Origin: an uncultured Nitrososphaeria archaeon
GTDB taxonomy: Archaea; Thermoproteota; Nitrososphaeria_A; Caldarchaeales; JAVZCJ01
DNA: 43,781 nucleotides
Direction of reading: 5' to 3'
NCBI GenBank assembly: GCA_964532175.1
Contig: CAZHGP010000005.1
Span: 1 to 43,781 of the forward strand
Below the pieces are notes generated by a model. The model saw only the letters and a program-made list of their open reading frames with translations. It was not told the origin of the DNA and did not search any database. Shown piece by piece: positions 2,876 through 43,482 of this stretch (the stretch's first letter is position 1; every line of letters starts with the position of its first letter). The position numbers and the translations under genes were made by a program.

Positions 2876-2910
2876 AAATGGCAAATATATAACTAATTGT
2901 TATTTATTTA

Positions 2911-3533: not shown

Positions 3534-3556
3534 ATTCGGTATAGAAGGTAAATAAG

Positions 3557-4256: not shown

Positions 4257-4320
4257 AATAACACGATTTTCCCATTAGATAATGCTAATTCTTAGAACTA
4301 GCATTCGAGTCTTTCTTTTC

Positions 4321-4405: not shown

Positions 4406-4452
4406 CTTTTATTTTTTAAAATATTATTTCTTTAATTATTTTTATTCTTTAA

Positions 4453-5158: not shown

Positions 5159-5209
5159 TTTTAATAAAAATATATTAATTATTTTAATTATTATATTAAT
5201 GATGAAAAT

Positions 5210-5434: not shown

Positions 5435-5448
5435 GAGGTGTTAAAAGT

Positions 5449-5676: not shown

Positions 5677-5760
5677 AAACTCAACTAATTAAATAATCCC
5701 CATTTTTTTTATTTTTTAGAAACTCGTATAGATTTTTTAATAAAAAACTATAGTGAAATT

Positions 5761-6573: not shown

Positions 6574-6730
6574 TTTTAACCACTTTTTCTATTTAAAATA
6601 TAGTGATGGTTAAATTTAATCGTATGCTTTAGAACGAATTGTCCATTATTTAGAACAGTAAGAAATAACATAAATTTTTTCAAAAATACTTTAAGAAACA
6701 TTTGAATATACGAGGAATAATTAAATATCA

Positions 6731-7951
6731 TTAATTGCTATCAAATTCTTCATTTCTCATTAAAATATAGAATATTATAACATAAAATATATAGAATACA
6801 GAAGTTGCATAAGGTGGTGAATCAACCATTATATTATCCATCATATACCCTCCTATCGGCATACCTAATGCATTTGAAATAGACCAGCTTAAATTTGATA
6901 AACTATTTACAGTGGCTCTTTCTTCTTCTTTAACAAGTTTCATAAGTAATGATCCTATAAGTGGATTTGCCATATTCATCATAGCTTGTCTATAAATATA
7001 AATTATTGAAGCTATTGTAAAATTTGGTGAAAATGTAATAAATATTAATCCTGGAATAGAAGCTAATTGTGTATATATTATAGTCATTAATGTTCCTATT
7101 CTTTTTGAAATTTTTGGAGCTATTAAGAAAGTTGGTGAACATGCGATATTTGCAATAAAACTAAGAGTGCCATATGCATCTTCTCTAATTCCAAACTTTT
7201 TATAAAAATAATAACCAAACATTTGAATAGTCATACCTGCACCAAAAGCAACAATAGCATTTGCTATCATATATTTTAAAGCTATTCTACTAGACTTTAT
7301 CTTAAGACTTAATCTTCTTTTCCCTTTTGATTGACCAATAGCTTTAACCATTAATATTGGAATAACAGATAAAAACATTAAAATTGCAATCAATCCAAGA
7401 GCAATTTTATAAGAATCGGTTAATTCATAATTAAATTTCGCATTAAGAATACTAGGTGTCCAACTAAGTATGCTTCCAATAGCAAATGAAAATGATTGAA
7501 AAAAAGCATTCACACTAAAACCAAAATCCATTTCTCTTTTATCTAATGTGTCCGCAAAAAGAGCTGAAAAAGTTGACCATGATAAAGCAGAGGATAGACC
7601 TAAAATTGCTGAAGAAAAAGCAACAATTGGAAAATATGTAGAAAAAAGAATTATTATTATGGGAGGTATACTTAATAAAGTACCAATTACTAATGTTCTT
7701 CTTCTTCCGTAATTGTCTGCTATTAATCCTCCAGGAATCATTGAGACTGAAGTTACTATATTTGTTATCATAAGTATCATTCCTAACATTGTACCATCGT
7801 AGCCTACATGTATAAGGTAAAATTGAAAAACAACAGAATAAAGTCCAAAAGCAATCCATGCGATAAAATCTGACAAAATCATAAGTTTTGCGTCTTTTCT
7901 AAGACGATTAATACCGCTTATTAATTCGATTGTTTTCTTTTTTGCATTCAA
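6731..7951 (-). CDS. MFS transporter
   Basis: About 12 TM helices; MFS motif A GGLIADNYGRRR. Confidence 0.92.
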   Translation of the reverse strand: MNAKKKTIELISGINRLRKDAKLMILSDFIAWIAFGLYSVVFQFYLIHVGYDGTMLGMILMITNIVTSVSMIPGGLIADNYGRRRTLVIGTLLSIPPIIIILFSTYFPIVAFSSAILGLSSALSWSTFSALFADTLDKREMDFGFSVNAFFQSFSFAIGSILSWTPSILNAKFNYELTDSYKIALGLIAILMFLSVIPILMVKAIGQSKGKRRLSLKIKSSRIALKYMIANAIVAFGAGMTIQMFGYYFYKKFGIREDAYGTLSFIANIACSPTFLIAPKISKRIGTLMTIIYTQLASIPGLIFITFSPNFTIASIIYIYRQAMMNMANPLIGSLLMKLVKEEERATVNSLSNLSWSISNALGMPIGGYMMDNIMVDSPPYATSVFYIFYVIIFYILMRNEEFDSN

Positions 7952-8190
7952 AGTTTATCACAATAATGTCAATTTTTCTTATTTAATGATTTTTAAAGAA
8001 GTTAAAAGAAAGATAAATATAAATTTTTTCAAATTTTATTTTCTTTTTGCCTTTTTAATAATTTTTCTTAAAAGTTGATGTTATGAATATATTCTCTAAT
8101 TTTAATCTTCTAATATTTGGATATATTAAAGGAGATAAGATCTCTTTTTTGGCTAAATCCTTATATTTAAATTTGATTATTTAATTTCTT

Positions 8191-8517
8191 ATGTCATTGG
8201 AAGATAAATTAAAAGACTTTCTTGAAAATGGAAAAGATTGGGAAAGGAGACAAACAACAATTGCAGGGGTATTCCTTTTAAAAATCCCTCAATTAAAAAG
8301 CAAGCCAGCAAATATAGCTGTAGAATTAAATCCAGTAGATGAATATGGAAATCCAACTAAAAGAAGAGGAGTAATATTAAGAAATTTAGAAGAATTAAAA
8401 GAATTTAGAAATTTAATAAATAATGAAAAATTAGAATATCTTTTAAAAGTTTTAGATGATGTTAATCCAAAAGCTATAAAAAGAGCTAGACCAAGTAAAG
8501 AAGCAATAGAGATATGA
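8191..8517 (+). CDS. Conserved archaeal protein, PC4/Sub1-like ssDNA-binding fold suspected
   Basis: VELNPVDEYGNPTKRRGVILRNLEELKEF resembles the PC4 signature; ATGA overlap with the helicase gene. Confidence 0.6.
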   Translation: MSLEDKLKDFLENGKDWERRQTTIAGVFLLKIPQLKSKPANIAVELNPVDEYGNPTKRRGVILRNLEELKEFRNLINNEKLEYLLKVLDDVNPKAIKRARPSKEAIEI

Positions 8518-10682
8518 GCCTCTATAATAACCCTCTTATTAGAAAAGAAGTTTTAGAATATAGAGAGTTTCAAGATAATATAGCTAAAGAATCGATTAAG
8601 AAAAATACTTTAATTGTTCTTCCAACCGCTTTAGGAAAAACAATAATAGCTGCATTAATTTCAGCTTATTTTTTATACAATTTTTATGATAAGAAAATAT
8701 TATTCATGGCTCCTACAAAACCTTTAGTTAATCAACATAGAGATGTTTTCTTAAAAATCTTAAAAATAAAGCCTGAAGATACACAAATAATAACTGGAAG
8801 GATGAATCCAGACTATAGATTACATTTATGGAATAAAAGTAAAGCAAAAATTTTCTTTGCTACTCCTGAAACTGTTAGAAATGATTTGGATGCAGGATTA
8901 AACTTAAAAGATTTTAGTTTATTAATATTTGATGAATGCCATAGAGCTGTAAAAGATTATGCTTATACAAAAGTTGCTAAAAAATATGCAAGTCAATGTC
9001 CTTATCCAATTATTATTGGTTTAACAGCTAGTCCCGGTGCTAATAAACAAAGGATAAAAGAAGTTTGTGAGGCACTTTTCATAGAACAAATCATAGCTAG
9101 AACAGAAGAAGATGAAGATGTAAAAAAATATATCAATCCAATAAAAATGGAAATTAAAATAGTTAAACAACCCGAATCTTATATAAATATTAGAAATATT
9201 TTAAAAGAGAGTTTGAATGAGAAACTTAAAGAGCTTCATTCTTTAGGTGTTATTAAGAAAGATCCAAAATATATTTATAGAAAAGATTTGCTTGAAATTG
9301 GGGAAGAGTTAAGAATTAGAATTGAAGAATCTATGCTTGATGAAGAAAGAGGGACTTTATATAATATTTTAGCTATTCAATCTATTGCTTTAATACTTTA
9401 TCATGCTCTTGAACTTTTAGATAGTCAAGGAATGCATGCACTTTTGCATTTTATGGAAAAAATTGCTGAAGGAGAAAAAAGAATCCATAAAATTCTTATG
9501 AAAGATCCATCATTTTATAAAGTTTTTCAAAAAATAAAAGAAGGACCTATTGAGGAGCATCCAAAAATTTATTTATTAAAAAGGATAGTAGAAAATGAAT
9601 TAACTTTAAATCAAAATGGAAGAATATTAATTTTTACACAATATAGAGATACAGCCTCTTTTATTTCATCTATTCTTAAAGAAAGTGGATTTAAAGCTGA
9701 AAAATTCATTGGACATGGTCAAAGAAATAAAGAAATTGAGATGACTCAAGAAGAGCAGATTGAAATACTAGAAAGATTTAGAAATGGGGAAATAAAAATA
9801 TTAGTTTCAACGAGCATAGGTGAAGAAGGATTAGATATACCTCAAGTAGATTTAGTAATATTTTATGAACCTGTTCCAAGTGAGATAAGGTATATTCAAA
9901 GGAGAGGTAGAACAGGAAGAGCAAGAATTGGAAAAGTAGTAATTCTTGCTACAGAAAATACACTGGATATGGCTTATCTTAGAACAAGTAAAAGAAAAGT
10001 TAAGAAAATGATTGAAATAATAAAGAATTTAAATATGGAACTCAAACCATTTAAAAGATTGGAACAATTTAAACCATGCATTATTCCAATGGAAAAAATT
10101 ATTGAAGCTGAAAAATTAATAAAATTAGAAATGCCATCTCATAAAGAAGAAGCTAAACCTATTTTAATTCAAAGTGTGCTAGATATAATTGATGAATATG
10201 ATGAAGTATTGGAAAAGTCTTTTTATAAAGAAGTAAATGCAATTTCAAAATATATTTTAAAGAAAGTTTTAGAAGCTGGTGAAAATGGAATAAGCATAAA
10301 ATCATTAATAGAAGAAGGTGAATATGAAGGTTTAAGTCCTGGAATAATAAATGCATCTATTAAGAAGCTTGAAAAAGCAAACCAAATATATTTAAAAGGA
10401 GGAAAAATTATGCCATATGGATATAGCTTTATGGAAAATATTTTAAGTGGAAAAACAAGTTATGAAGCTAATACTCATGAAATAGAGATTGAAAAAATAC
10501 TTCCTGGAAAAGCTATAGTAATAGTAGATGATAAATGGCATGCTATTTTGGAATCCTCAGAATACTATGGTCCAAGACAGCTTATAAAGAAAGGAAATAG
10601 ATTCAAAGCAGCAGCAAAATTATATCATTTAGATGGTAAATTATATATAAGAGTCTATGGTGTAACAGCATACTTAGATTAA
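8514..10682 (+). CDS. hef: Hef/FANCM/Mph1-type SF2 helicase without ERCC4 nuclease domain
   Basis: LPTALGKT, APTKPLVNQH, DECH, GLTASPG, GEEGLDIP, QRRGRTGR; C-terminus has no ERKxxxD. Confidence 0.88.
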   Translation: MSLYNNPLIRKEVLEYREFQDNIAKESIKKNTLIVLPTALGKTIIAALISAYFLYNFYDKKILFMAPTKPLVNQHRDVFLKILKIKPEDTQIITGRMNPDYRLHLWNKSKAKIFFATPETVRNDLDAGLNLKDFSLLIFDECHRAVKDYAYTKVAKKYASQCPYPIIIGLTASPGANKQRIKEVCEALFIEQIIARTEEDEDVKKYINPIKMEIKIVKQPESYINIRNILKESLNEKLKELHSLGVIKKDPKYIYRKDLLEIGEELRIRIEESMLDEERGTLYNILAIQSIALILYHALELLDSQGMHALLHFMEKIAEGEKRIHKILMKDPSFYKVFQKIKEGPIEEHPKIYLLKRIVENELTLNQNGRILIFTQYRDTASFISSILKESGFKAEKFIGHGQRNKEIEMTQEEQIEILERFRNGEIKILVSTSIGEEGLDIPQVDLVIFYEPVPSEIRYIQRRGRTGRARIGKVVILATENTLDMAYLRTSKRKVKKMIEIIKNLNMELKPFKRLEQFKPCIIPMEKIIEAEKLIKLEMPSHKEEAKPILIQSVLDIIDEYDEVLEKSFYKEVNAISKYILKKVLEAGENGISIKSLIEEGEYEGLSPGIINASIKKLEKANQIYLKGGKIMPYGYSFMENILSGKTSYEANTHEIEIEKILPGKAIVIVDDKWHAILESSEYYGPRQLIKKGNRFKAAAKLYHLDGKLYIRVYGVTAYLD

Positions 10683-10693
10683 TTTTTTAAATT

Positions 10694-11665
10694 TTAACTT
10701 TCTGCTACAGATGTTACTTCTTCCTTTACTTCTTTCTTTTCTTCTTTAGGAATTCTTTTCATATATTCTTCCAAATCTTTAGATCTATTTCTAATAGTAA
10801 CCAATGTGACTCCAGATGCTTTAGCAACATCTTTTTGCATAATATCTATATTGTTTTCTCTACATGCTAAATATAATGCTGCAGCTGCAATTCCTACAGG
10901 ATCTTTACCTATTGTTGCTCCAACTTCTTCAGCTTTATTTAATATTTTAATTGTTTCTTGAATAATATTTTGACTTAAACCAAGCTTTGAAGCAATTTTA
11001 TTAACATATATAGTTGGATCCGTTAATTGAACTTTAAGATTAAGATACTTCATTAATAATCTATAATCTCTTGCAATATCTTTTTTAGTAACAATTGGAT
11101 ACGCTTTTTCAAATTCTCTTAAATCTCTTGGAGTTCCAGAAATTCTACAAGCAGCATAAGTTGCTGCAGCTATAATATTTCTAATAGCTCTTCCACGTAT
11201 AAGGTCTTTTTTTAATGCTTCTTTATAAATTTGCATAGCTCCTTCAATAACATAATCTGGTAAATTAAGCTTATCAGCATATATTCTTAAAACATTTGCT
11301 GCTTGTTCAAGATTTCTTTTTTGAGCAATATTTACTTGAGACCTATAATCAGCTTTTCTTAATTCACTTAAGTGTTTTTTAGCTTCTTTTGGAAGAGCTT
11401 TTCCTTGAGCATCTTTTAAATCTTTAGAAATAGTAGTCGATAAGCCTAAATGTTCATACATAATTGATTGTGGAGGACCAACACGACTTCTACTTTTTTC
11501 ACTTTCTTCAAACTCTCTCCATTCAGGACCTTGATCTATAACTATTTCTGATAATACGTATCCACAAGATTGACAAGATACTTCTCCTGTTCTACTATCT
11601 TCTATTAAGTACTTACTTCCACATTGTGGGCACCTATATTTTCCCAAAAATTTTTCTTTTTCCAT
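10694..11665 (-). CDS. tfb: Transcription initiation factor IIB (divergent copy)
   Basis: Zn ribbon CPQCG...CQSCG, DQGPEWR B-reader, two cyclin repeats, VTIRNR; SD GAGGTGAG at 11681-11674. Confidence 0.95.
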   Translation of the reverse strand: MEKEKFLGKYRCPQCGSKYLIEDSRTGEVSCQSCGYVLSEIVIDQGPEWREFEESEKSRSRVGPPQSIMYEHLGLSTTISKDLKDAQGKALPKEAKKHLSELRKADYRSQVNIAQKRNLEQAANVLRIYADKLNLPDYVIEGAMQIYKEALKKDLIRGRAIRNIIAAATYAACRISGTPRDLREFEKAYPIVTKKDIARDYRLLMKYLNLKVQLTDPTIYVNKIASKLGLSQNIIQETIKILNKAEEVGATIGKDPVGIAAAALYLACRENNIDIMQKDVAKASGVTLVTIRNRSKDLEEYMKRIPKEEKKEVKEEVTSVAES

Positions 11666-11755
11666 TTTAAATACTCACCTCTATTTCCTAATAGTTCATA
11701 GCATTAAAATTATTCACTAAAAAATGCTCACTAATTAGGAAATTCAACCAGTACG

Positions 11756-11810
11756 AACTAATATATAAACTTTTCTCTTTAAAATTATACAAACTAATAT
11801 ATAAACTTTT
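11756..11810 (-). promoter_or_regulatory. Tandemly duplicated BRE-TATA promoter of tfb
   Basis: Exact 19-bp repeat at 11756-11774 and 11792-11810; the minus strand reads AAAAG-TTTATATA-TTAGTT. Confidence 0.75.
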
Positions 11811-11997
11811 TCATAAAAATACTAATATTTTGAAAAAAGTATTATGATAAGATATTTAATTCTTCGATTTTATTAAATTTTATGTTAATATTTTTTTATT
11901 TTTGACAAATTAATATTAAAAATTTTAATTTAAGAAAAATGAGAATATAATTATTTAAAGATAAAGACTTAAATATTCTTAAAAGAATTTTTCTCAT

Positions 11998-13626
11998 ATG
12001 AATGATTCTTCAATGCCGGAACCTTTTTTACGTTCATATCAATTACTAGATAAGCAAACTAAGTTGGAAAACTTATTTAGTATATCATATTGGCTTTGGC
12101 GATTAAACCCATCATCAATATTCCCTATAATGCTAGGTAGTGCTGTTGAAGTTTTAAAAGAATCTATAATAGTTATTACTCTTATATTTTCTTTATCCCA
12201 ACTTGCTGCAACAAACATTCTAAATGAGATTGCAAATGCACTTATAGCTAGTGATTTCTCAACATTATTTTCATTATTTTCTTTAATTATTCCAAAAATT
12301 ATAATTACTTTCATTATAGCAGCATTTACATTTTTTTTAGCTTCTATTATAGCCAGTGGTTTTTTAAATTCTGCAGAATATGGCTCTTATCTTCATTTAT
12401 TAAGAAATGGTACACTTTCAATATCAAATGTGTTAGAAGAAATGAAATTAAAATGGACTAAAATGACTTGGACAGTATTAGTAGTTGAAATTATAAAATA
12501 TGGGCCAATATTTTTAGTGCTTACTTGGATATTTTTTGATATTCTACATTTATCAACTATAGGTTTAGATCAATTAAAGTATCCATCATTTTTTAATAAG
12601 CTCTTTTTATGGGTAGGTTTTATATTAATTGCATTAATTTTCACACTAATTTTTACATTATTAACTCTTTATGCTTATCCTGTAGCTATGAATGGTCTTT
12701 ATGGATTTGCCGCAATAAGGAGAAGTATAATGGTATGTAAAGAGCTTCCTATTGATACATTAGCATACTGTGTTTTTAGAGTATTATCTTTAATATTTAT
12801 AAGCGTTATTTCATTTATAGCAAGCTTACTTGCTATTCAAATTTCATCAATCATAGCACTTATCTTAAGCTTTATTCTAACTCCAATTTTTCATATACTT
12901 AAGACTGCGATTTTCCTTAAATCACAACCTAATTCTATTATTATTTCATATTCTATCAATATTTCATTTTTAAAAGATTTCTTTTCATATATTTTGAAAA
13001 TAGGATTAGAAAAAATTAAGAAAGGATTAAATGAACTCATCATTTTTCTAACTAAACCTAAGAATATTATATTCCATATTTTTTCAATAGTTGCTTTTTC
13101 TTTAGGAGTATTAATTGGAGAATGGATTTCATATTCTGGCATTAGACAAATTTTCTACGCATTAGGATATGTACCAGGAAAAATGAATCCCTTATTTAAA
13201 GCCACGTATGGTTTGCCTTTTCTTGCTCTCGACATATCTTTTCATAATTGGCAAGTTTCACTAGCTACAGCTCTTTCTGGTGTGATATTTATTATTCCAG
13301 TTTTAACAACACTATTTTTTAATGGTTTCATTTTAGGGGTAATTATGGATATTATTCAAAACTTAACTTTACTCATGGCAGCAATACTCCCGCATGGAAT
13401 AATAGAGCTTCCTGCTTTTATAATTTCTGGTTCTGTTGGATTAAGATTAGGGTTTGATTTTCTTAAGGCTTTAAAGCAAGGTAACTTAAGTTCTAACATT
13501 GAATTTCATCAAGCTTTAAGAAGAACAATTTACATAATGCTTGGGTTAATTCCATTGTTCATCATAGCAGGAATTATAGAAACATTCATTACACCGTATA
13601 TAATGCGTGCATATGGTTGGGAATAA
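11998..13626 (+). CDS. Polytopic membrane protein with C-terminal SpoIIM domain
   Basis: ISFHNWQV...FFNGFILG...ILPHGIIELPA...AGIIETFITP; extra N-terminal multi-TM region. Confidence 0.85.
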   Translation: MNDSSMPEPFLRSYQLLDKQTKLENLFSISYWLWRLNPSSIFPIMLGSAVEVLKESIIVITLIFSLSQLAATNILNEIANALIASDFSTLFSLFSLIIPKIIITFIIAAFTFFLASIIASGFLNSAEYGSYLHLLRNGTLSISNVLEEMKLKWTKMTWTVLVVEIIKYGPIFLVLTWIFFDILHLSTIGLDQLKYPSFFNKLFLWVGFILIALIFTLIFTLLTLYAYPVAMNGLYGFAAIRRSIMVCKELPIDTLAYCVFRVLSLIFISVISFIASLLAIQISSIIALILSFILTPIFHILKTAIFLKSQPNSIIISYSINISFLKDFFSYILKIGLEKIKKGLNELIIFLTKPKNIIFHIFSIVAFSLGVLIGEWISYSGIRQIFYALGYVPGKMNPLFKATYGLPFLALDISFHNWQVSLATALSGVIFIIPVLTTLFFNGFILGVIMDIIQNLTLLMAAILPHGIIELPAFIISGSVGLRLGFDFLKALKQGNLSSNIEFHQALRRTIYIMLGLIPLFIIAGIIETFITPYIMRAYGWE

Positions 13627-34026: not shown

Positions 34027-34392
34027 GTGTTGGCAAATAAGGAAAAAAAGCGAAAAAATAAAAAAGAACATTTGCTATTAGGTGAAGATTTAGATCTTGT
34101 AGAAAATTATGGAGAAATAATTCGTAATGCAAGGATAAAAATGGGAATTTCTCAAGAAGAATTAGCAAAACAAATTTCAGAAAAACTTACAATAATAAAA
34201 AAAATTGAGCAAGGATCATTTAAACCACCAATTGAATTAGCTAGAAAACTTGAGAAATTTTTAAAAATAAAAATTATTGAAAAAGTAGAAACTTTCCATC
34301 CTTCTACTTTAAAGCCATATATTCAATCTCCACATCCAAGTACTGTTCCACTTGGATATTTAATTAAAAAAAATAGAGGAGGAAAAAAATAG
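34027..34392 (+). CDS. mbf1: Archaeal multiprotein bridging factor 1, HTH domain only
   Basis: LVENYGEIIRNARIKMGISQEELA...IKKIEQG...ARKLEKFL; adjacent to hflX. Confidence 0.82.
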   Translation: MLANKEKKRKNKKEHLLLGEDLDLVENYGEIIRNARIKMGISQEELAKQISEKLTIIKKIEQGSFKPPIELARKLEKFLKIKIIEKVETFHPSTLKPYIQSPHPSTVPLGYLIKKNRGGKK

Positions 34393-35645
34393 TGAAAGTA
34401 GCAATAGTGCATAGAAGAGAGAAAGGGGAAGAATCAAATTTAGCCGAATTAAAAGAATTATGTAAAACAGCTGGTTATCAAGTAGTATATGAATTAACTC
34501 AAGTTAGGGAATCTCATCCAAAATATGATATTGGCCCTGGAAAAATTAAAATTCTAAAAGATGCTATAAAAAGATTTGGAATAGAAAAAGTAATTTTTGA
34601 AAATGATATTAAACCAGTTCAAGAATACAATTTAGCTAAAGTTCTTCAAGTTCCTATTATAAGTCGAATAAGACTTATACTTGAAATATTTTCCAAACAT
34701 GCCTCTTCAATTGAAGCTAAACTTCAAATAAAACTTGCAGAATTAATGTACGAATTACCAAGAGTAAAAGAAAAAGTTAGATTAGCTAAAAAAGGTGAAC
34801 AACCTGGTTTTCATGGATTAGGAATGTATGATGCTGAAGTTTATTATCTTCATATTAAAAGAAGAATAGCTATAATTAATAAAAAACTTGAGGTTATAAG
34901 AAAAAGGAGAATAAGATTAAGAGAAGGAAGAAAAATTAACGGAATACCACTTGTAACAATAACAGGCTATACTAATGCAGGGAAATCTACGCTTTTTAAA
35001 GCTTTAACTAAAAGTGAAGTAAAAATTAGCCCTTTACTTTTTACTACACTTTCACCTAAAACTAAAATGATTAAAATTGATGGTAAACCAGTATTTATTT
35101 CAGATACTATTGGTTTTATAAAAAATTTGCCAACATTATTAATTGAAGCTTTTCATTCAACATTAGAAGAAATATCTTACTCGGATTTAATAATTTTAAT
35201 AGTTGATATTTCAGAAAGTATAGAAGAAATATTGAATAAAATATATTGTTCACTTTCAATTTTAAGAGAAATAAATGTTTTTGAAACTCCAATATTGCTA
35301 GTATTAAATAAAATAGATAAAATTTCTATAGAAGAATTAAAGGAGAAAGAAGAAAAATTATCAAATTTAAATTTACCTTATGTAGCAATTTCAGCTCTTG
35401 AAAAAATAAATATTGAAGATTTAATTAATAAATTATCATTAATGCTTTCAAATAATTATGTAAAAATTCATGTAGTCTTAGAAAATTTAAAAGAAAATTT
35501 CTCAATTTTATCAAATATTCTTAAATATAGTAAAATAATATCATTTTCAAATAATGAAAAAGGTATAGAAGCAGAATTAGAAACATTGCCTTTTTTCGCA
35601 GAAAAACTTAGATCCATAGCAATATCATATAATATTATATCCTAA
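34392..35645 (+). CDS. hflX: Ribosome-associated GTPase HflX
   Basis: LILEIF..HA..EAKLQI, GYTNAGKST, LFTTL, DTIGF, NKID. Confidence 0.95.
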   Translation: MKVAIVHRREKGEESNLAELKELCKTAGYQVVYELTQVRESHPKYDIGPGKIKILKDAIKRFGIEKVIFENDIKPVQEYNLAKVLQVPIISRIRLILEIFSKHASSIEAKLQIKLAELMYELPRVKEKVRLAKKGEQPGFHGLGMYDAEVYYLHIKRRIAIINKKLEVIRKRRIRLREGRKINGIPLVTITGYTNAGKSTLFKALTKSEVKISPLLFTTLSPKTKMIKIDGKPVFISDTIGFIKNLPTLLIEAFHSTLEEISYSDLIILIVDISESIEEILNKIYCSLSILREINVFETPILLVLNKIDKISIEELKEKEEKLSNLNLPYVAISALEKINIEDLINKLSLMLSNNYVKIHVVLENLKENFSILSNILKYSKIISFSNNEKGIEAELETLPFFAEKLRSIAISYNIIS

Positions 35646-35726: not shown

Positions 35727-36248
35727 CTGCTTATTATTATAGATGAGCCTACTGCTATAAAAACTATAGAATTAGCAGCAGGTAAAGGAGCTGTTGAAAT
35801 TTTTAAATTGTTAATGAAAAAACCATGGTTAACAGATGAAGAAATAGCAAACATTCTTAAGATTGATATTAGAGAAGTTAGGAAGTTATTGCATAGATTG
35901 CATGAATTATCATTAATATCATATGATGTTGCTAGAGATGTTAAGCTTGGAAGAAGAGTATTTAAATGGAATGTACAAACAAGCCAAATGATTGGATTTA
36001 TTAAAGTTGCTCTTCAAAAAACTTTAGAGAGATTACGTTTAAAACTTGAATATGAACAATCTCATCAATTTTATTATTGCGGTACTCCTGGATGTAGAAA
36101 ATATACATTTGAAGAAAGTGTAAATAAATTATTTAAATGTCCAACTTGTGGAAAAATATTAGAATTATATGATAATAGTAAAATAATAGAAGCTATAAAA
36201 GAAAAAATTTCACAAATAGAGAAAGAATTAATTGAAGAACCAGGTTAA
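35727..36248 (+). CDS. tfe: Transcription factor E alpha
   Basis: LTDEEIA...VRKLLHRL wH and Zn ribbon CGTPGC...FKCPTCG; probable CTG start at 35727, 6 nt after SD GGTGA (track start 35808). Confidence 0.92.
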   Translation: MLIIIDEPTAIKTIELAAGKGAVEIFKLLMKKPWLTDEEIANILKIDIREVRKLLHRLHELSLISYDVARDVKLGRRVFKWNVQTSQMIGFIKVALQKTLERLRLKLEYEQSHQFYYCGTPGCRKYTFEESVNKLFKCPTCGKILELYDNSKIIEAIKEKISQIEKELIEEPG

Positions 36249-36251: not shown

Positions 36252-36989
36252 ATGGAAATAGTATTATCGGAAAGAACAAATAGAAAAGATAAATATGAAG
36301 TTTTAAAAAATTTAATGGAAGAAATTAAAGAAAAATATTCAAAAACAGACGTTGAAATAAAAAATTTATTTTTTAATAAAAATGGATGGCTAATAATAGA
36401 TGTAAGTGAAGAGAAATTTTTTATAAATACAATAAATAAATTTACTATTTTCCCTCTTACAATTTTTAATAAGCAATTTTCAATAACTGGAAAAATAGAA
36501 GAAGTTGAAAATGATTATTTAAAAATAATTTTTCCAAATAATAAAGGAGAAACTTCTACATTAGATATTAAAATAAAAAATTTTATAAGAAAAATTGGTA
36601 TTTCTACTATGGATTTAGATAATTCTTTAAAAGGGTTACTTCATATAAAAAAATTATCACCTATTCATATTTATTTAGGAAGGGAGAAAAATATATCATA
36701 TTATCATGCAAATATAATTAATGAATGGTATAAGAAAGGGCTTAATGCAGTAAATGTGAACGATGTAACAATGAGAGAGTTAAAAAATATTATTTCTGAA
36801 AAAAATCTTGATAAAGTTATAATTAAAATTTATCCATTAACATTTTTATCGTATAGATTAGTTTTAAGGATAGGAGCAATACCAGAAGTAATAGAAAATG
36901 AGATAAAAAGAAGTTTTAAAGAAATAGGGATAGATATTGTTACATCGAGCTTTAATTGGAAAAAAGCAGCTTCGATTTTTTCTTATTAA
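36252..36989 (+). CDS. Hypothetical protein, possibly DUF2110-like
   Basis: Starts 3 bp after tfe, the usual position of DUF2110; NKNGWLIIDV and IYPLTFLSYRLVL are weakly reminiscent of that family. Confidence 0.55.
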   Translation: MEIVLSERTNRKDKYEVLKNLMEEIKEKYSKTDVEIKNLFFNKNGWLIIDVSEEKFFINTINKFTIFPLTIFNKQFSITGKIEEVENDYLKIIFPNNKGETSTLDIKIKNFIRKIGISTMDLDNSLKGLLHIKKLSPIHIYLGREKNISYYHANIINEWYKKGLNAVNVNDVTMRELKNIISEKNLDKVIIKIYPLTFLSYRLVLRIGAIPEVIENEIKRSFKEIGIDIVTSSFNWKKAASIFSY

Positions 36990-37538: not shown

Positions 37539-38519
37539 ATGACTGAACCGTATGAGATTTCAAGAAAAGAAATTGAGATATTAAAAATATTAAGTGAATC
37601 AACAGAACCAATTGGTTCAACATTAATTCGACGAGAACTAGAGAAAAGAGGTTTTTTTCTTAGTGAAAGAACTATAAGATATCATCTTAGATCATTAGAA
37701 TTAAAAGGCTTGGTTTCAGGACATGAAAGAAGTGGAAGAACTATAACTAATAAAGGTTTAGAAGAACTAAGTAGAGCTTTAGTATCTCATAGACTTGGTT
37801 TTATTATTACTCGCTTTTTATCAATGGCTTATTCAGTTACATACGATCCAATTGTAGACTCTGGAATGGTAGTTGCTAATGTCTCAATTATAGATAAATC
37901 TTTCTATGATAAAACCATTGAAACAGTAAACTCTTTGCATAAAACTGGTTTATTATTAGCTCCATATATTAAAGTATTAGATGAAAATGAAGAATATCAA
38001 AACATAGTTGTTCCAGAAGGAAAGATTGCTCTTTTCACAGTTTGTGATTTGACTATAGATGGCGTGCTTATGCATGCTGGAATACCTTTATTCTTTAAAT
38101 ATGGTGGATTAGTTCAAATTGTAAATCATAAGCCAATACGTATTATTGAGTTAATATCATATGAGGGGACAACTATTCCTCCTCTTGAACTTTTTGTTCG
38201 AAGTAATCAAACTTCAATTGTTAAAGTGATGAAAACTGGTTCAGGCGTACTGCCTGCAGCTTTAAGAGAAATTGTTTCTGAAGCAAGAGAAAAAACACTT
38301 AGGATTCTTTCAACATTGAAAGATAGAGGATGGGGCGGTGTTTTAGCTCTAGGCGTTCCAAATGAAGCAATTCTTGGTGTTCCAGTAGCTATGGATAGAT
38401 TTGGTTTATGTATGATAGGTGGCCTTGCTCCAAGTGCAGCTCTTTTAGAAGAAGGTGTAAAAATTGAAACTTTTGCTCCTCATTGCCTAATCCCTCTTGA
38501 AGATATGAAAAGAATATAA
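37539..38519 (+). CDS. nrpR: NrpR-family nitrogen repressor (wHTH + single NRD/DUF128 domain)
   Basis: EILKILSE..PIGS...SERTIRYHL...GRTITNKG; VVANVS, TVCDLTIDGVL, ISYEGTTIPPLE, GGL. Confidence 0.88.
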   Translation: MTEPYEISRKEIEILKILSESTEPIGSTLIRRELEKRGFFLSERTIRYHLRSLELKGLVSGHERSGRTITNKGLEELSRALVSHRLGFIITRFLSMAYSVTYDPIVDSGMVVANVSIIDKSFYDKTIETVNSLHKTGLLLAPYIKVLDENEEYQNIVVPEGKIALFTVCDLTIDGVLMHAGIPLFFKYGGLVQIVNHKPIRIIELISYEGTTIPPLELFVRSNQTSIVKVMKTGSGVLPAALREIVSEAREKTLRILSTLKDRGWGGVLALGVPNEAILGVPVAMDRFGLCMIGGLAPSAALLEEGVKIETFAPHCLIPLEDMKRI

Positions 38520-38539
38520 TTATTGTATATTATGTATTT

Positions 38540-39928
38540 TTAATGTTTATTCATTAAATAATTATTTATTGATGTAGCTGCCCTTTTTCCAGCTTCTATA
38601 GCTTTTATTACAGTTGCTGCACCACTAACTACATCACCACCAGCAAAAATTCCATTAGAGGCTTCTAAAGTTTCTGGGTCAACAATTATAGTTTTTTGTT
38701 TATTTGAGATTCTAATATTTCTCGAGGTATTTGTTGCTGCTATAGTGTTTGGTATATGTTCCGTTGCTATGATAACAGTCTCAGCATTATAGAATATTCT
38801 TGAACTTTCTTCTGGGATTAGTTTAGGTTTACCAGTTCTACTGTTTACTACTTGCTTTAATCTTATAAGTTCAACTTGTTCTACCCATCTTTTTTCATTT
38901 CCGATCAATCTTATTGGCTTAATTAATGATTGAAGTTTTACACCTTCTTCTATTCCACGCCTAATATCATCTACTCTCCCTACAATTTTCCTTTGATAAA
39001 ATATGGAAACTTCTTCTGCTCCTAATCTAAGAGCACATCTAGCAGCATCCATTCCTCTAGCACCTAATACTGCAACTTTGCCTCTAACTTTAATTGGAGT
39101 TTTACTTTTATATGGAAAAGTATATGCATTCATTAAATTTATTCTAATAAGAAACTCGTTTAAAGAATAAACTCCACATAGATTTTCACCTGGAATTCCT
39201 AAAAGTTTAGGCAATCCTGCTCCTGTGCCTAGAAAAATAGCATCAAATCCTTCATCAAAAAGGTCATCTATAGTTAAAGTTTTTCCTATAATAATATTCG
39301 TCTTTATTTCAACTCCAATTTTCTTAATATACTCAATCTCTTGTCTAACAATTTTTTTTGGCAAACGAAATTCTGGTATACCATAAATTAATACTCCTCC
39401 TGCTTCATGCAATGCTTCAAAAATGACTATATGATGACCCATTTTCGCTAATTCTGTAGCTACACTTAAGCCTGCAGGACCACTACCAACGATTGCTACA
39501 CTTTTTCCAGTAAATTTAGGAATATCTGGAATTTTTATTCCTTTTTCCAGATTCCAATCAGCAATGAACCTTTCAAGAGCTCCTATATTAATTGGATCAC
39601 CTATAGTATTCTTACATCCCATAACGCATAATTTTTCTTGTGGGCACACTCTCCCACAGATTGATGGTAAACAATTCTTCTCGCGAATTTTCTCATTAGC
39701 TTCTTCATAAGCACCTTTTCTAATGAGTTTTATGAAGTTTTTTATATCTATATGAAGTGGGCACATCTCTATACATAATGGATTCTCACATTGAAGACAT
39801 CTAGATGCTTCAGCCAATGCTTGTTCTTCACTATATCCTAAAGCTACTTCACTAAAAGTTTTTAAACGTTCTTCTATAGATAATTCTGACATCGGGACTC
39901 TTTTTAATCTAATATCTAAAATTTGCAT
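38540..39928 (-). CDS. NfnB/SudA/GltD-family flavoprotein with degenerate NADP(H)-binding loop
   Basis: EASRCLQC..PLC..MCP, CGRVCPQEKLC, GSGPAG, YGIPEFRLPK, FAGGDVV; second Rossmann loop reads VLGARGMDAAR. Confidence 0.88.
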   Translation of the reverse strand: MQILDIRLKRVPMSELSIEERLKTFSEVALGYSEEQALAEASRCLQCENPLCIEMCPLHIDIKNFIKLIRKGAYEEANEKIREKNCLPSICGRVCPQEKLCVMGCKNTIGDPINIGALERFIADWNLEKGIKIPDIPKFTGKSVAIVGSGPAGLSVATELAKMGHHIVIFEALHEAGGVLIYGIPEFRLPKKIVRQEIEYIKKIGVEIKTNIIIGKTLTIDDLFDEGFDAIFLGTGAGLPKLLGIPGENLCGVYSLNEFLIRINLMNAYTFPYKSKTPIKVRGKVAVLGARGMDAARCALRLGAEEVSIFYQRKIVGRVDDIRRGIEEGVKLQSLIKPIRLIGNEKRWVEQVELIRLKQVVNSRTGKPKLIPEESSRIFYNAETVIIATEHIPNTIAATNTSRNIRISNKQKTIIVDPETLEASNGIFAGGDVVSGAATVIKAIEAGKRAATSINNYLMNKH

Positions 39929-40762
39929 TTAAATTTCCCTCATAATTTTTAGAGCAGCTTTCTCCTCTTCATCATACATATGGATTCTTGCTTTAAACTC
40001 TTCAAAATCTACAAGATGAGCATCAAAATCTGGGCCATCTATACATACAAACTTAGGTTTTCCATCAATGGTTACTCGACAGCATCCACACATACCTGTA
40101 CCATCAATCATTAAAGAGTTAAGACTAACAATTGTTTTAATCTTATAAGGTCTTGTAATATCTGAAATATTTTTCATCAATGTTGCTGCTCCCACAGCAT
40201 ATACCAAATCGAATCTTTCATTCGATTCAAGCAATTTTTTAAGAACATCACCAGCATATCCCTTAATTCCTTCAGAACCATCATCAGTAACTATGTAAAA
40301 ACTATCACTCAATTTCTCAAATTCTTCCTTGTAAATTAAGAATTTTGATGTTCGTGCACTTATAATGGTTGTTATATTATTACCAACTTCTTTTAGTTTT
40401 TTTGCTCTTTCATAAGCTGCTGCAATTGCTACTCCTCTACCAACAATGCATACTTTTCCATATAATGCTATTTCACTTGGTTTTCCTAAAGGACCTACTA
40501 AATCATGGATTACATCTCCAACTTCTAATCTTCCAAGCTCTCTTGTTGATGCCCCAACTTCTTTAAAGACCAATGTTATCGTTCCTTCTTTAGGATCCCA
40601 ATCTATGAGTGTTAAAGGGATTCTTTCACCATCCTCACTCACTCTTAAAATTACAAACTGTCCAGACTTAGTTTTCTTAGCAATCAATGGTGCTCTAACT
40701 TTTATAGTCTTAACTCCTGGAGCTATTTCTTTTTTAAAGATTATTTCATTCTCCATTTTCAT
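39929..40762 (-). CDS. NfnA/SudB-family FAD/[2Fe-2S] subunit
   Basis: GQFVILRV..GERIPLT, GPLGKP, TDDGS, MIDGTGMCGCCRV, CIDGPDF. Confidence 0.9.
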   Translation of the reverse strand: MKMENEIIFKKEIAPGVKTIKVRAPLIAKKTKSGQFVILRVSEDGERIPLTLIDWDPKEGTITLVFKEVGASTRELGRLEVGDVIHDLVGPLGKPSEIALYGKVCIVGRGVAIAAAYERAKKLKEVGNNITTIISARTSKFLIYKEEFEKLSDSFYIVTDDGSEGIKGYAGDVLKKLLESNERFDLVYAVGAATLMKNISDITRPYKIKTIVSLNSLMIDGTGMCGCCRVTIDGKPKFVCIDGPDFDAHLVDFEEFKARIHMYDEEEKAALKIMREI

Positions 40763-40773
40763 TTAGCTCCTAC

Positions 40774-41412
40774 TTATTTTCTGTAAAGACCTACTGAAAT
40801 TGCTTTAATAATTTCTTCAGGTTTTTTTCCAAAGTAAATCATATCCAAGAAAGCTTTTTTCAAATCTGTTCTCTCATTATAAAGATTAAATCTTTCTAGA
40901 GCAATATCCAGGATTTCTGATATGATAGGCATTTTTTGTTTATAAATCCTTCTTGCAATATTCCAGCATTTGCAGAAATTAGAGTAGTCCAATCCTAGAT
41001 TAAAATATTCTGCTAATATTGCATATACAATTTCTTGATTTGAAAGTTTCTTAAAAAAACGTTTCTCAAAGTATCCTTTTATCTCTTCATTTTTGCTAAT
41101 GCTATAAAGATAACTCCAATAAATGTAATTGTAGAATATATCTGTAGTTCTATCTTGAAAGTCTGGACAACTAATACCTGGGTTATGTCCTTTAGCACAG
41201 ACTATATTACCATCTATATCTCTCCTATCTTCAAAGTTTTTGCACTCGATACAGAATCTTGTCTTAGATGCTGTATTTCTTACGCCTTCAAACTTATCTT
41301 GAAAATCTGGACAACTAACGCCGGGATTATGATTTTTAGCACAGACTATATTACCATCTACTTCCATTCGGTCTTCGAAATTTTTACATTCAAGACAGAA
41401 TCTTAAAAACAA
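40774..41412 (-). CDS. Uncharacterized protein with two tandem 4-Cys repeats and a helical C-terminal domain
   Basis: RFC.ECKNFEDR...DGNIVCAK.HNPG.SCPDFQD occurs twice; lies within the operon. Confidence 0.8.
   Translation of the reverse strand: MFLRFCLECKNFEDRMEVDGNIVCAKNHNPGVSCPDFQDKFEGVRNTASKTRFCIECKNFEDRRDIDGNIVCAKGHNPGISCPDFQDRTTDIFYNYIYWSYLYSISKNEEIKGYFEKRFFKKLSNQEIVYAILAEYFNLGLDYSNFCKCWNIARRIYKQKMPIISEILDIALERFNLYNERTDLKKAFLDMIYFGKKPEEIIKAISVGLYRK
41152..41403 (-). repeat. Intragenic tandem duplication (two 108-bp units, 144-bp period)
   Basis: aa 4-39 (41403-41296) and aa 52-87 (41259-41152) are near-identical in protein and DNA. Confidence 0.9.
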
Positions 41413-41422
41413 ATCTCATCAC

Positions 41423-43030
41423 TTATGATAGCATATTTTCCAAAATATTATCTGCTCCTTCAATTAATGGTATACCAGTTACTTTTGCAGCTCTTTCAGA
41501 TAATGCTACTAGATCATGCCTATCGAGCAAATTAAGTTTCCACTTTCTTGCTCCGGCCATTAATTGTTGTAAGCCAACCTTAATTCTATCCATGTATGTG
41601 TATAATCCAATGGCTCCCCAAGGTATATCTTTAAATTTCTCATGAAAAATTGCTTTTAGATCAGGAACGCTTATGAAAAATTTTTCTGGTGAATCACCAA
41701 AGAGTTCTTCAAAGTACTTTGGCAATAACCCTTTTCCAGCTAGTTCAGCAAAATAAGTTGATTTCATTACAGCAGTTAATGGTGCTCTACCCATTAATAT
41801 AGCTTTTACGTATGGCCCATTACCAAAATTGCTCATAGCAATAGCTTTAAATATTTGTGTTTCATCTATGAAACCTCCAGCAATTACTATATCTGGTACA
41901 TACCTCCCTTTTTTATTAAGAAGTACTGCACATTTTAATACTTGAGCTTCAAGATAAACTGTTGGTGTACCCATTTCATTCATCATTGGCACAGGACTCA
42001 TTCCAGTACCACCACCAGCACCATCAAAAACTACATAATCAATTTTTGCTTCTGAAGCAACTTTCATTGTAAAAGCTACTGCTTCTGGACTATAAGCTCC
42101 AGTTTTCAAGCTCACTTTTTTAGCACCTTGTTCTCTTAACCATTCTATATCTTCAATGAAGTTTTTCTCTTTTGGCATACCAACTCGACTATGTCTCTCA
42201 AAAGTCCTAAAAACACCTTGTTTATAAGCCTCTTGAACATTTTTATCTTCTGGATCTGGTATAACGATATAGCCTCTTTTCTTTAAGAGAATTGCTTTTT
42301 CTAGATCATTTATTCTAACTTCTCCTCCAATTGCTTTTGCTCCTTGACCCCATTTTCTTTCTATAACATTTACTTCAAGTTTAGAAATTGCATAGATATC
42401 TACTCCTAGTCTTTGATCCTCAACATTTGTTTGAACTGCAATATTTCCATATTTTCCATCCCAAAATTTTCGAAATGCTTCAACTCTCCTTTTCAATTCT
42501 GGCGAATGAGTAACTTTTCCATTCTCAATCTTTGCTTCAGGATCCATTCCACAAACATTTTCTCCTATGGTAACTATTATTCCAGATAAAGCTCCACCAA
42601 TTGCTAATCCATCCCAATTTACTTTAGCTACATCTGTAGAACCATAAGCACCTATCATGACTGGTATTTTAAGAGGGATACCCCCAACATTTGTTTCTAT
42701 ATTTACATTTGGAAAAATTGCAATATCAGAATCTTCATCTATACCCATAGTGCCTAAAAGTCTAGATTGAATATTAAAATGAGACCAATCTAAACCATAA
42801 TCTTTTAAAGCTCCTGCTGTGCTATTTCCAAACATGCTAGGATCTGGATAAAGTGCTTCTCTTCCTCTGAATGCAGATAATGAAACTTGACATAGAAATG
42901 GGCATTCCTTAATACATAATGGACATAAACCGCTAGTTGGGCAAACATCCTCAACCCTAGTTTTAGTTCTGGTTGTAGACATAGAATTTAAATATGAAGA
43001 ATTCTTATGAATAGGATTAGGCATAATCAA
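41423..43030 (-). CDS. Stand-alone FMN-binding glutamate synthase domain protein (GltB2-like)
   Basis: ERKWGQGAKAIGGE, FDGAGGGTGMSP, IAGG, MGRAP; N-terminal Cys cluster CPTSGLCPLCIKECPFLC. Confidence 0.87.
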   Translation of the reverse strand: MIMPNPIHKNSSYLNSMSTTRTKTRVEDVCPTSGLCPLCIKECPFLCQVSLSAFRGREALYPDPSMFGNSTAGALKDYGLDWSHFNIQSRLLGTMGIDEDSDIAIFPNVNIETNVGGIPLKIPVMIGAYGSTDVAKVNWDGLAIGGALSGIIVTIGENVCGMDPEAKIENGKVTHSPELKRRVEAFRKFWDGKYGNIAVQTNVEDQRLGVDIYAISKLEVNVIERKWGQGAKAIGGEVRINDLEKAILLKKRGYIVIPDPEDKNVQEAYKQGVFRTFERHSRVGMPKEKNFIEDIEWLREQGAKKVSLKTGAYSPEAVAFTMKVASEAKIDYVVFDGAGGGTGMSPVPMMNEMGTPTVYLEAQVLKCAVLLNKKGRYVPDIVIAGGFIDETQIFKAIAMSNFGNGPYVKAILMGRAPLTAVMKSTYFAELAGKGLLPKYFEELFGDSPEKFFISVPDLKAIFHEKFKDIPWGAIGLYTYMDRIKVGLQQLMAGARKWKLNLLDRHDLVALSERAAKVTGIPLIEGADNILENMLS

Positions 43031-43047
43031 TCCCTCAATATGGTTGA

Positions 43048-43063
43048 CGGCTACCTATTGCCG
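43048..43063 (-). promoter_or_regulatory. Candidate NrpR operator
   Basis: Minus strand CGGCA-N6-AGCCG, a GC-rich dyad with the geometry of the methanococcal GGAA-N6-TTCC operator, at the predicted start site. Confidence 0.55.
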
Positions 43064-43082
43064 ATAAACGTAAACTTTCTTA

Positions 43083-43097
43083 CTTATAAATTTTTCG
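43083..43097 (-). promoter_or_regulatory. BRE/TATA of the glutamate synthase operon
   Basis: Minus strand CGAAAAA-TTTATAAG. Confidence 0.7.
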
Positions 43098-43200
43098 GAT
43101 TATCCTATTATGAGAATTTAATCTTTCTTTATCAATTATTTTAGAAAAATAATAAAATTATAGAACATATTTTATATTATTGTTAATTTGTAATAAAAAA

Positions 43201-43360
43201 GTGAAAAGTTTAGCTAATATTGGATTAGCGATGCAAAACATTTGTTTGAGAACTCTTGGTCTTTATTTAAGAAGTTATATAATTGGAGGATTTAATAAAG
43301 AAAAAGCAAGAAATTTTCAATAAGGAAGGAACTTGAAAAAAAATGTTTATGAAGAATGGG
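43201..43360 (+). pseudogene. Nitroreductase-family gene relic
   Basis: NIGLAMQNICLRTLGLYLRSYIIGGFNKEKAR*, then a broken VYEEWG; matches the degraded D.G.A.QN..L.A..LGL....IG.F motif. Confidence 0.6.
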
Positions 43361-43482
43361 GCTTCAATTCAAAAAGTAAGATATCTTAGCTTTGTAAAGA
43401 AATTTCATAAATTAAGCTTTAATATTTATAAGAAAAATTAATTATTATTTTTTAAATAGTTTAATTTTTTTTACTTATTTAA

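Follow-up and report, generated by a model that had tools for sequence, protein, structure and literature searches.

Textbook accounts recognize two routes from ammonium to glutamate, namely glutamate dehydrogenase (GDH) and the ATP-consuming cycle of glutamine synthetase (GS) with glutamate synthase (GOGAT). Many uncultivated anaerobic archaea carry GS and GDH and have no recognizable GOGAT glutaminase, yet they maintain a flavin mononucleotide (FMN) flavoprotein that is highly conserved (70-96% identical across classes). What reaction might this protein carry out, and with which partners? We examined this question with a stretch of DNA of 43,781 nucleotides (the window; contig CAZHGP010000005.1 of assembly GCA_964532175.1) from an uncultured hot-spring archaeon of the Nitrososphaeria (Caldarchaeales, JAVZCJ01), whose genome (G000) amounts to 1.47 Mb and is 97.13% complete. 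Here, four minus-strand genes, which code for the FMN protein, a Cys-repeat protein (CysRep) and the reductase subunits NfnA and NfnB, converge on a plus-strand gene for the nitrogen repressor homologue NrpR. The genomic case for a nitrogen-regulated, amidotransferase-free system that resembles glutamate synthase is strong. Our preferred reading is more specific, and we give it a probability of roughly 45%: the operon would encode a glutaminase-independent glutamate synthase that is fed by NfnAB and is under the control of an NrpR-type regulator. That the genes make up one iron-sulfur flavoenzyme system under nitrogen control is likewise plausible, at somewhat less than even odds.

A conserved four-gene cluster linked to nrpR

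The genes are closely packed, with intergenic gaps of 10 bp (FMN-CysRep), 11 bp (CysRep-nfnA) and 0 bp (nfnA-nfnB), and the convergent stop codons of nfnB and nrpR are 20 bp apart. A four-gene operon with these gaps, converging on nrpR, had been proposed from the letters of this DNA alone (the original prediction), and the gene coordinates agree with it. The regulator gene itself is readily assigned through matches of its product to PF01995 (E = 1.8e-74) and PF08461 (E = 3.6e-21).

Gene neighborhoods were counted in 80 loci found with the FMN protein and in 23 loci found with CysRep. The order FMN-CysRep-NfnA-NfnB recurs in G038, G039, L012, L017 and L112, and is retained across classes at 62-86% protein identity. 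The two genomes of the same genus (G038 and G039) have the identical five-gene layout, including nrpR, as do several contigs from Bathyarchaeia, and because of this recurrence we consider the layout to be beyond chance. The nrpR gene adjoins the module in 15 loci (this one and 14 others) and does so in four arrangements. For example, it lies directly upstream of the FMN gene in G056 and G067, follows CysRep-NfnA-NfnB in loci that have no adjacent FMN gene (L113-L115), and precedes FMN-CysRep on a single strand in L121. Archaeoglobaceae-type contigs (L118-L120) carry an FMN gene and, after it, an NfnB-like gene; NfnA is missing there, and CysRep is in convergent orientation.

Across all 80 FMN-family loci, the arrangement FMN-CysRep-NfnA(-NfnB) is present in six, and CysRep or Nfn genes are not nearby in the other 74. 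Neighbors with a role in nitrogen metabolism include nrpR and glnA (four loci each), conventional GOGAT genes (three loci), and a GDH gene in 41 loci, in most cases on the same strand and some 100 bp downstream. The tie to nitrogen control is much stronger than the original prediction could show, as is evident from the conserved adjacency of nrpR, the frequent glnA and GDH neighbors, and an operator held in common with a conventional GOGAT operon in genome G079 (see below).

Contig C2 of G079 (L017), on which glnA lies just upstream of the FMN gene, deserves separate description. Its positions 1-12500 form a nitrogen island in which conventional gltB2, gltB1, pyr_redox and fdx genes on one strand are followed by a gene for an Lrp/AsnC regulator, and then by glnA, FMN, CysRep, nfnA, nfnB and a convergent nrpR.

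The FMN protein as a distant relative of archaeal GltB2

The only Pfam family that matches the FMN protein is PF01645, with a score of 41.6 bits against a cut-off of 20.4. This match is partial, joining residues 289-399 to profile positions 189-296 of 369, and conventional GltB2 proteins reach 467-479 bits on the same profile. There is no match at E <= 0.01 to PF01070 (FMN_dh), the family of 2-hydroxy-acid oxidases. When the FMN family was aligned by hhalign with the conventional GltB2 of G079, the two were related with a probability of 97.4% (E = 1.1e-11) over 257 columns that span the barrel. Blocks common to both are GE(N/G), VQ..R(L/F)GV, IE.K.GQGAK, DG..GGTG..P and GG...KA(I/L)ALGA. The synthase-site blocks used for comparison read GEGG, VQ.ASGRFGV, K.GQGAKPG.GG, SP.P.HDIYSIEDL and DG..GGTGA.P. 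These alignments make the FMN protein a remote yet genuine relative of archaeal GltB2.

Structural modeling with AlphaFold2 gave a confident (beta/alpha)8 barrel (mean predicted local distance difference test score, pLDDT, 79.3), leaving the Cys-bearing N-terminus unmodeled. In VIA-align comparisons, the longest alignment covers 347 residues and leads to residues 792-1189 of the glutamate synthase alpha chain 6s6s_A (Z 22.6, root-mean-square deviation 4.2), and scores of Z 25.9 for mandelate dehydrogenase, 25.1 for IDI-2 and 24-26 for hydroxy-acid oxidases were also obtained. A search of solved structures with the single FMN sequence returned nothing relevant. The modeled fold is that of a generic FMN barrel, which is non-discriminating. 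We decided the affiliation by sequence rather than by fold because PF01645 is the sole Pfam match and because the GltB2 profile alignment extends over the barrel.

An alignment of 18 family members reveals a conserved N-terminal CX2CX3CX3C motif. No Cys residue follows the segment GRAPLTAVM, where the GltB2 of G079 and Escherichia coli GltB carry their Cys motifs. The proposal that an N-terminal Cys cluster takes the place of the usual C-terminal one is thereby upheld, both by the family alignment and by hhalign against GltB2. The family also has invariant features of its own, namely FERHSR, R493 and D504.

More than 8000 database proteins match the FMN protein, among them relatives from Bathyarchaeia, Methanomethylicia and Nezhaarchaeales that are 70-96% identical; such relatives are named only 'glutamate synthase-related'. 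When the database is reduced to representatives at 50% identity, 865 of them match at E <= 0.001, and at E <= 1e-30 the number is 115. The same genome holds a second paralogue of the FMN protein, with 76% identity, on contig C74, which is 2.8 kb long (L001:124-1728).

The reductase subunits resemble NfnAB rather than GltD

The NfnB-like protein scores 478.5 bits on the NfnB/GltD family TIGR01316 (cut-off 471.75) and carries full-length Fer4_20 and Pyr_redox_2 domains. Against proteins of solved structure, it yields 430.5 bits with NfnB of Thermotoga maritima (4ylf_B; residues 9-459), 406 bits with NfnI of Pyrococcus furiosus (5jca_L), and 202 bits with GltD of Azospirillum brasilense (6s6s_G). 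Its partner scores 374 bits on the NfnA/SudB family NF004862 (cut-off 220), includes the PF10418 iron-sulfur domain, and matches the small subunit of P. furiosus NfnI (5jca_S, 293.9 bits) and 4ylf_A (261.7 bits). PyrK, a homologue of NfnA, is also among the structure matches, and dihydropyrimidine dehydrogenase was hit as well. As judged from these scores, the reductase genes encode genuine NfnAB, not GltD, and the proteins earlier called NfnA-like and NfnB-like are true members (430.5 versus 202 bits).

The genome holds a second NfnB paralogue (52% identical) near the end of contig C13, 83 bp from the contig end (L128:5329-6723). This paralogue is of the type that is paired with FMN in the Archaeoglobaceae-type contigs. 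The second FMN and second NfnB paralogues could be neighbors in the real genome, where they would constitute an FMN-NfnB module that lacks NfnA.

GOGAT glutaminase and GXGXG subunits were not found in the genome

The original prediction noted that the operon has no gene for the glutamine amidotransferase (GltB1) or for the GXGXG subunit (GltB3). This holds, and it extends to the whole genome. There are no matches to PF00310 (GATase_2), and a tblastn search with GltB1 of G079 retrieved only GlmS, at 21% identity. A scan for GXGXG proteins yielded a single open reading frame (ORF) of 276 amino acids on contig C42, which looks like fwdC rather than gltB3 because it is flanked by genes for an FwdA-like amidohydrolase and Mch. 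The other two genes of interest in this context, glnA and a gdhA for a protein of 417 amino acids, were both found.

A similar pattern is observed for the class. The FMN family is represented in 9 of 76 genomes (two of the nine instances being fragments) and GATase_2 in 5 of 76, and none of the nine genomes with the FMN family carries GATase_2. Where GltB1 does exist, its own conventional GltB2 adjoins it.

The contig with the GXGXG gene (C42; L005) encodes the FwdA-like amidohydrolase, the FwdC-like protein and Mch in one cluster, and contig C13 carries a cluster with CdhD and a RACo-type activase (L128:34-2845). Because of these Fwd/Mch and CdhD/RACo clusters, the organism possesses parts of the tetrahydromethanopterin (H4MPT)/Wood-Ljungdahl pathway.

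A control element common to several operons

The sequence GGYAAYNGGYWRCC has a single match in the 1.47-Mb genome, which is the site in the promoter of the FMN gene. It belongs to a dyad spanning some 21 bp, which is a perfect palindrome in L019. Among 78 related FMN loci, 9 have the motif at the same position, precisely those that are most closely related; it also precedes the FMN gene in G038, G039, L109 and L112. In L111 and L113-L115, where CysRep-nfnAB is unlinked from FMN, the motif is instead found before CysRep. Furthermore, an unlinked FMN gene (L010) and a CysRep-nfnAB operon (L113) from the same metagenome-assembled genome both carry it. Genome G079 has three sites, of which one precedes the FMN operon, one precedes the conventional operon fdx-pyr_redox-gltB1-gltB2-gltB3, and one is intragenic. 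In relatives, CTTATAT boxes are found directly before the motif. Given the motif before FMN, CysRep-nfnAB and the GOGAT operon of G079, the three therefore appear to share one control element in this lineage.

We considered whether the third site in G079 might also be an operator, and treated it as a chance match since it is intragenic and is without TATA context.

The dyad is presumably bound by NrpR, as suggested by the adjacency of nrpR in the 15 loci noted above. The operator consensus of NrpR in Methanococcus maripaludis is GGAAN6TTCC (PMC2723118), and the 14-bp promoter element keeps the GG-N10-CC outline of this canonical operator. Elsewhere in the window, the consensus matches three times against 0.77 expected, and 5 of 100 shuffled sequences also reach three. 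One such perfect match, GGAATTTTTATTCC, lies at positions 39528-39541 inside the nfnB coding region and is probably a chance occurrence in AT-rich DNA.

In the Methanomethylicia metagenome-assembled genome that carries L010, a gene for a molybdopterin oxidoreductase of 647 amino acids lies upstream of the operator-bearing FMN gene (L010:3908-5851), and the CysRep-nfnAB-nrpR genes are on a separate contig (L113).

CysRep is a candidate subunit with paired Cys4 repeats

CysRep contains two repeats of the form C-x2-C-x14-C-x9-C, and all eight Cys residues are invariant in the family alignment. No family was matched in Pfam or NCBIfam, and each of the 67 relatives in the database is labeled hypothetical. 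AlphaFold2 modeled the helical C-terminal domain with confidence and the repeats without it. A Foldseek search with this model gave no match at E <= 0.001, and a features search of the Atlas returned matches at or below 0.77, which are leads only. Only with the TTG start does the gene include the initial CxxC of repeat 1, a feature that 17 of 18 aligned homologues share. Database entry P0303 and an Atlas record begin at an internal Met (residue 16) and so drop this CxxC; some gene calls in the family are probably truncated at the start.

Short forms of CysRep (129-135 amino acids) comprise little more than the repeats, to which a short tail is added. In L125, where the assignments are confirmed by Pfam, a short CysRep heads the conventional split GOGAT operon (gene order CysRep-fdx-pyr_redox-gltB1-gltB2-gltB3), and an FMN-family gene comes after this operon. 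The same series of ORF sizes is present in L123, L124, L126 and L127, and an FMN-family gene follows in L126 as well. CysRep is a new candidate for a subunit with a redox or adaptor role in glutamate synthases generally.

Another gene recurs near these Bathyarchaeia operons. A protein of about 365 amino acids with AbrB/MazE-type and PhoU domains is encoded divergently before conventional GOGAT operons that carry the short CysRep, as well as before some of the FMN genes (L125:79-1185, L126:1567-2655, L123:4779-5879, L122:1747-2847 and L027:5727-6842). It is a candidate for an alternative regulator where nrpR is absent.

A proposed route from ammonia to glutamate

GltD, NfnB and the N-terminal module of dihydropyrimidine dehydrogenase (DPD) represent one shared module that feeds FMN barrels with electrons from NAD(P)H via two [4Fe-4S] clusters, according to a published account (PMC8097209). 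From the genes described above we infer a scheme that covers complex formation, the electron path, the substrate, the reaction's direction and the regulator's identity. NfnAB would take electrons from NAD(P)H and pass single electrons through the [4Fe-4S] clusters of NfnB. These would then proceed, probably via metal sites of CysRep, which may act as a carrier or adaptor in an NfnAB-FMN complex, to the 533-residue subunit, which would receive them at its N-terminal [4Fe-4S] cluster and its FMN. This subunit would reductively aminate 2-oxoglutarate with free ammonia to yield glutamate, with no need for a glutaminase. If NfnAB bifurcates electrons as known NfnAB does, the sum would be 2 NADPH + NAD+ + 2-oxoglutarate + NH4+ -> 2 NADP+ + NADH + glutamate. 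As a matter of speculation, the added redox drive could pull assimilation at low ammonium concentrations with no expenditure of ATP. The operon would be repressed through the dyad over the transcription start, most likely by the neighboring NrpR, and released when 2-oxoglutarate rises.

The full version of this scheme would be an ATP-free, high-affinity route for ammonium that runs from bifurcating NfnAB through a CysRep carrier to a glutaminase-less synthase, with an NrpR-type repressor and a new operator, and is widespread in Bathyarchaeia, Methanomethylicia and some Archaeoglobaceae. Bifurcation would supply low-potential electrons, and when nitrogen is limiting, free NH4+ would be drawn onto 2-oxoglutarate by redox energy in place of the ATP that glutamine synthetase spends. 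We regard this complete version as unlikely. In the full-text literature searched, with subscription journals outside its scope, we found no account of what the FMN family does, nor any of CysRep, the operator or a glutamate synthase linked to Nfn. What appears to be new is a GltS-type iron-sulfur flavoenzyme that has no glutaminase and is equipped with an Nfn reductase and a new subunit. Should the proposal be true, it would add a third route of ammonium assimilation and a new use of the electron-bifurcating module, and would change the reconstruction of nitrogen metabolism in Bathyarchaeia and Methanomethylicia. The operator and neighboring nrpR also offer a compact, directly testable instance of nitrogen regulation outside Euryarchaeota.

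Evidence against the proposal and alternative explanations

Several observations weigh against a glutaminase-independent glutamate synthase fed by NfnAB. With respect to the catalytic subunit, no more than half of the motifs that mark the synthase site in GltB2 seem to be retained; in the hhalign comparison, the block SP.P.HDIYSIEDL and the GG.LPG tail are replaced in the FMN family. A putative 2-oxoglutarate-binding Arg residue aligns to Ile or Leu, and the residue numbers of the GltS site are not used as evidence. By fold, the model stands no nearer to GltS (Z 22.6) than it does to IDI-2 or to the 2-hydroxy-acid oxidases (Z 25.9), and GltS is absent from the top 50 Foldseek matches, which are hydroxy-acid oxidases and IDI-2 (E of about 1e-10). 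When the family profile was compared with solved structures, 1ea0, 2vdc and 6s6s appeared at E = 0.076 and ranked below designed TIM barrels, and the hhalign comparison with E. coli GltB is marginal (probability 64%, 91 columns). With respect to regulation, the regions before glnA, gdhA and nrpR of the same genome did not yield the motif, and the M. maripaludis consensus GGAAN6TTCC has no match in the promoter (43031-43482). Moreover, the genome holds the second NfnB paralogue, and an Nfn partner is not thermodynamically required because amination of 2-oxoglutarate needs no low-potential electrons. Finally, the FMN family occurs alongside complete conventional GOGAT in G079, L125 and L126, and because both coexist in some genomes, the family is not simply a replacement for GOGAT.

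This coexistence, with an FMN-family gene beside complete gltB1-gltB2-gltB3 operons, might indicate that the FMN synthase is still dependent on glutamine. In that case the module would amount to a GOGAT variant whose reductase is Nfn, and the synthase would receive ammonia from an unrecognized class-I amidotransferase, a stand-alone glutaminase, or GltB1 where it is present. The operator common to the FMN and conventional GOGAT operons of G079 is compatible with this idea, as is glnA in the genome studied here, since net assimilation by glutamine synthetase requires that glutamine can be turned into glutamate. Amidotransferase genes are also encountered in single cases: a GATase_2 gene of 320 amino acids, together with a CCG/Fer4 (HdrD- or GlpC-like) gene, is divergent from CysRep-nfnA-nfnB in a Bathyarchaeia contig (L116:3183-5523), and a class-I GATase gene is divergent from FMN in L109. 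However, no amidotransferase gene is conserved beside the module in the loci examined, GltB1 was found neither in this genome nor in the nine genomes of the class with the FMN family, and where GltB1 is present it adjoins its own conventional GltB2. Glutamine dependence is thus improbable. Much the same can be said of the possibility that the genes are merely co-transcribed, with an ordinary NfnAB that tunes NADPH and ferredoxin during nitrogen limitation, an FMN protein that uses free ferredoxin, and a CysRep that serves as a regulator or zinc protein. NfnA and NfnB are indeed full-length and close to characterized NfnAB, CysRep-nfnAB-nrpR exists in L113-L115 with no adjacent FMN gene, and 74 of the 80 FMN-family loci have no CysRep or Nfn genes nearby. 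Nevertheless, the gaps of 10, 11 and 0 bp, the gene order retained at 62-86% identity across classes, the independent FMN-NfnB pairing in Archaeoglobaceae-type contigs, and the same operator on the unlinked FMN gene and CysRep-nfnAB of one genome (L010 and L113) all count against this explanation, which we consider similarly improbable.

The identity of the substrate leaves more room for doubt. The enzyme might act on some other 2-oxo, 2-hydroxy or imino acid (another amino/oxo acid pair, 2-hydroxyglutarate or a cyclic imine), or might run oxidatively on glutamate, with Nfn connecting it to the pools of pyridine nucleotides and ferredoxin. In structure, the top matches are enzymes for mandelate, lactate and glycolate (Z 24-26; Foldseek E of about 1e-10), the GltS motif set is kept only in part while FERHSR, R493 and D504 are specific to the family, and the GDH neighbors in Bathyarchaeia could indicate catabolism. 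Sequence profiles point the other way, as the FMN_dh family is not matched at E <= 0.01, PF01645 alone is, and the alignment with the GltB2 profile covers the whole barrel, including the GQGAK block. An operator shared with an anabolic GOGAT operon and the linkage to nrpR likewise fit assimilation, and glutamate oxidation, at an established potential of about -140 mV, could not stand in for reduced ferredoxin in the reaction of Nfn. We consider a different substrate rather unlikely, yet a more serious contender than the other two alternatives, and prefer the reductive amination of 2-oxoglutarate with free ammonia.

Relation to known enzymes

A close precedent in overall plan is the NADPH-dependent GltS (GltB/GltD; 1EA0, 2VDC and 6S6S), in which an FMN synthase barrel with an iron-sulfur cluster is fed by an adrenodoxin-reductase-like flavin adenine dinucleotide (FAD) subunit with two [4Fe-4S] clusters. 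The FMN protein has the GltS motifs GQGAK, GGTG..P and GG...KA.ALGA and aligns with it at Z 22.6 over 347 residues. In contrast to GltS, it lacks the PurF-type glutaminase domain, the central domain and the GXGXG beta-helix. Its Cys cluster is N-terminal (CX2CX3CX3C) instead of being situated within the barrel's C-terminal part (where bacterial GltB has [3Fe-4S]), its presumed reductase is NfnB with NfnA (430 versus 202 bits to GltD), and CysRep would be an extra subunit. Archaeal split GOGAT (GltB1, GltB2 and GltB3, as in G079 and L125) also employs a stand-alone FMN subunit of about 500 amino acids. It occupies the same genomes and gene islands, has the same operator in G079, and has operons headed by CysRep relatives. 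However, conventional GltB2 starts with a ferredoxin domain and bears a Cys cluster near its C-terminus, and GltB1 and GltB3 are always beside it.

Both reductase subunits are full-length, close homologues of the electron-bifurcating NADH-dependent ferredoxin:NADP+ oxidoreductase (NfnAB/NfnI; T. maritima 4YLF, P. furiosus 5JCA) and are encoded by adjacent genes with a 0-bp gap. Known NfnAB differs in that free ferredoxin is its partner and in that its genes are not known to occur together with those for an FMN barrel or for a Cys-repeat protein, whereas here one nitrogen-controlled operon includes both. Another GltS-type FMN subunit that stands alone and is wired to a swappable electron-input module is represented by the putative F420-dependent FGltS(I/II/III), which combine FrhB-type and GltB2-type subunits in the excerpts available of two reports (PMC3448663, PMC9012536). 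The reaction proposed for FGltS(I) in the excerpt of the former uses L-glutamine as the nitrogen donor (PMC3448663). The input module of FGltS is FrhB/F420 rather than NfnAB, and linkage to CysRep or nrpR is not mentioned for FGltS in these excerpts. DPD and dihydroorotate dehydrogenase B (PyrK-PyrD) provide further parallels, in that an NfnB-like (DPD) or NfnA-like (PyrK) module feeds an FMN TIM barrel via iron-sulfur clusters (PMC8097209). Their barrels are of the PyrD type and reduce pyrimidines, the proteins are fused or consist of two subunits, and they have no known link to nitrogen regulation.

Features of the locus

Coordinates for the operon, its putative control elements and nrpR are collected in Table 1. 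The FMN gene as called extends over 41423-43030 on the minus strand (535 codons). Since homologues begin to align at residue 3, we place the start at the ATG at 43024, which is preceded by a GAGGG box, and the protein is thus probably 533 amino acids long.

Table 1. Genes and putative promoter elements of the nrpR-linked operon, with positions numbered within the window
Feature	Position	Strand	Basis
nrpR, nitrogen repressor homologue with winged-helix and NRD1/2 domains	37539..38519	+	PF01995, PF08461
nfnB, NfnB-type large subunit with predicted sites for FAD, NADPH and two [4Fe-4S]	38540..39928	-	TIGR01316, structure matches
nfnA, NfnA-type small subunit with FAD and [2Fe-2S], PyrK-like	39929..40762	-	NF004862, PF10418, structure matches
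CysRep, 212 aa, two Cys4 repeats and a C-terminal helical domain	40774..41412	-	no known family
FMN/[4Fe-4S] (beta/alpha)8 protein, 533 aa	41423..43024	-	PF01645, hhalign, AlphaFold2 model
Operator-like dyad, 24 bp upstream of the FMN-gene ATG; core GGCAATAGGTAGCC at 43049-43062	43042..43062	-	motif conservation
TATA-like box TTTATAAG, upstream of the operator	43083..43090	-	read from sequence; presumed promoter element

The GC content across the operon is 0.33 (38001-42000), compared with 0.22-0.30 elsewhere in the window. This composition, and an identity of up to 86% to Bathyarchaeia despite an occurrence in 9 of 76 genomes of the class, could reflect either lateral transfer or strong constraint. 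On the far side of nrpR, an ORF of 245 amino acids with no Pfam family (36252-36989) lies between a TFE-alpha-like gene (35808-36248) and nrpR, and a gene for an HflX-like GTPase is located at 34392-35645.

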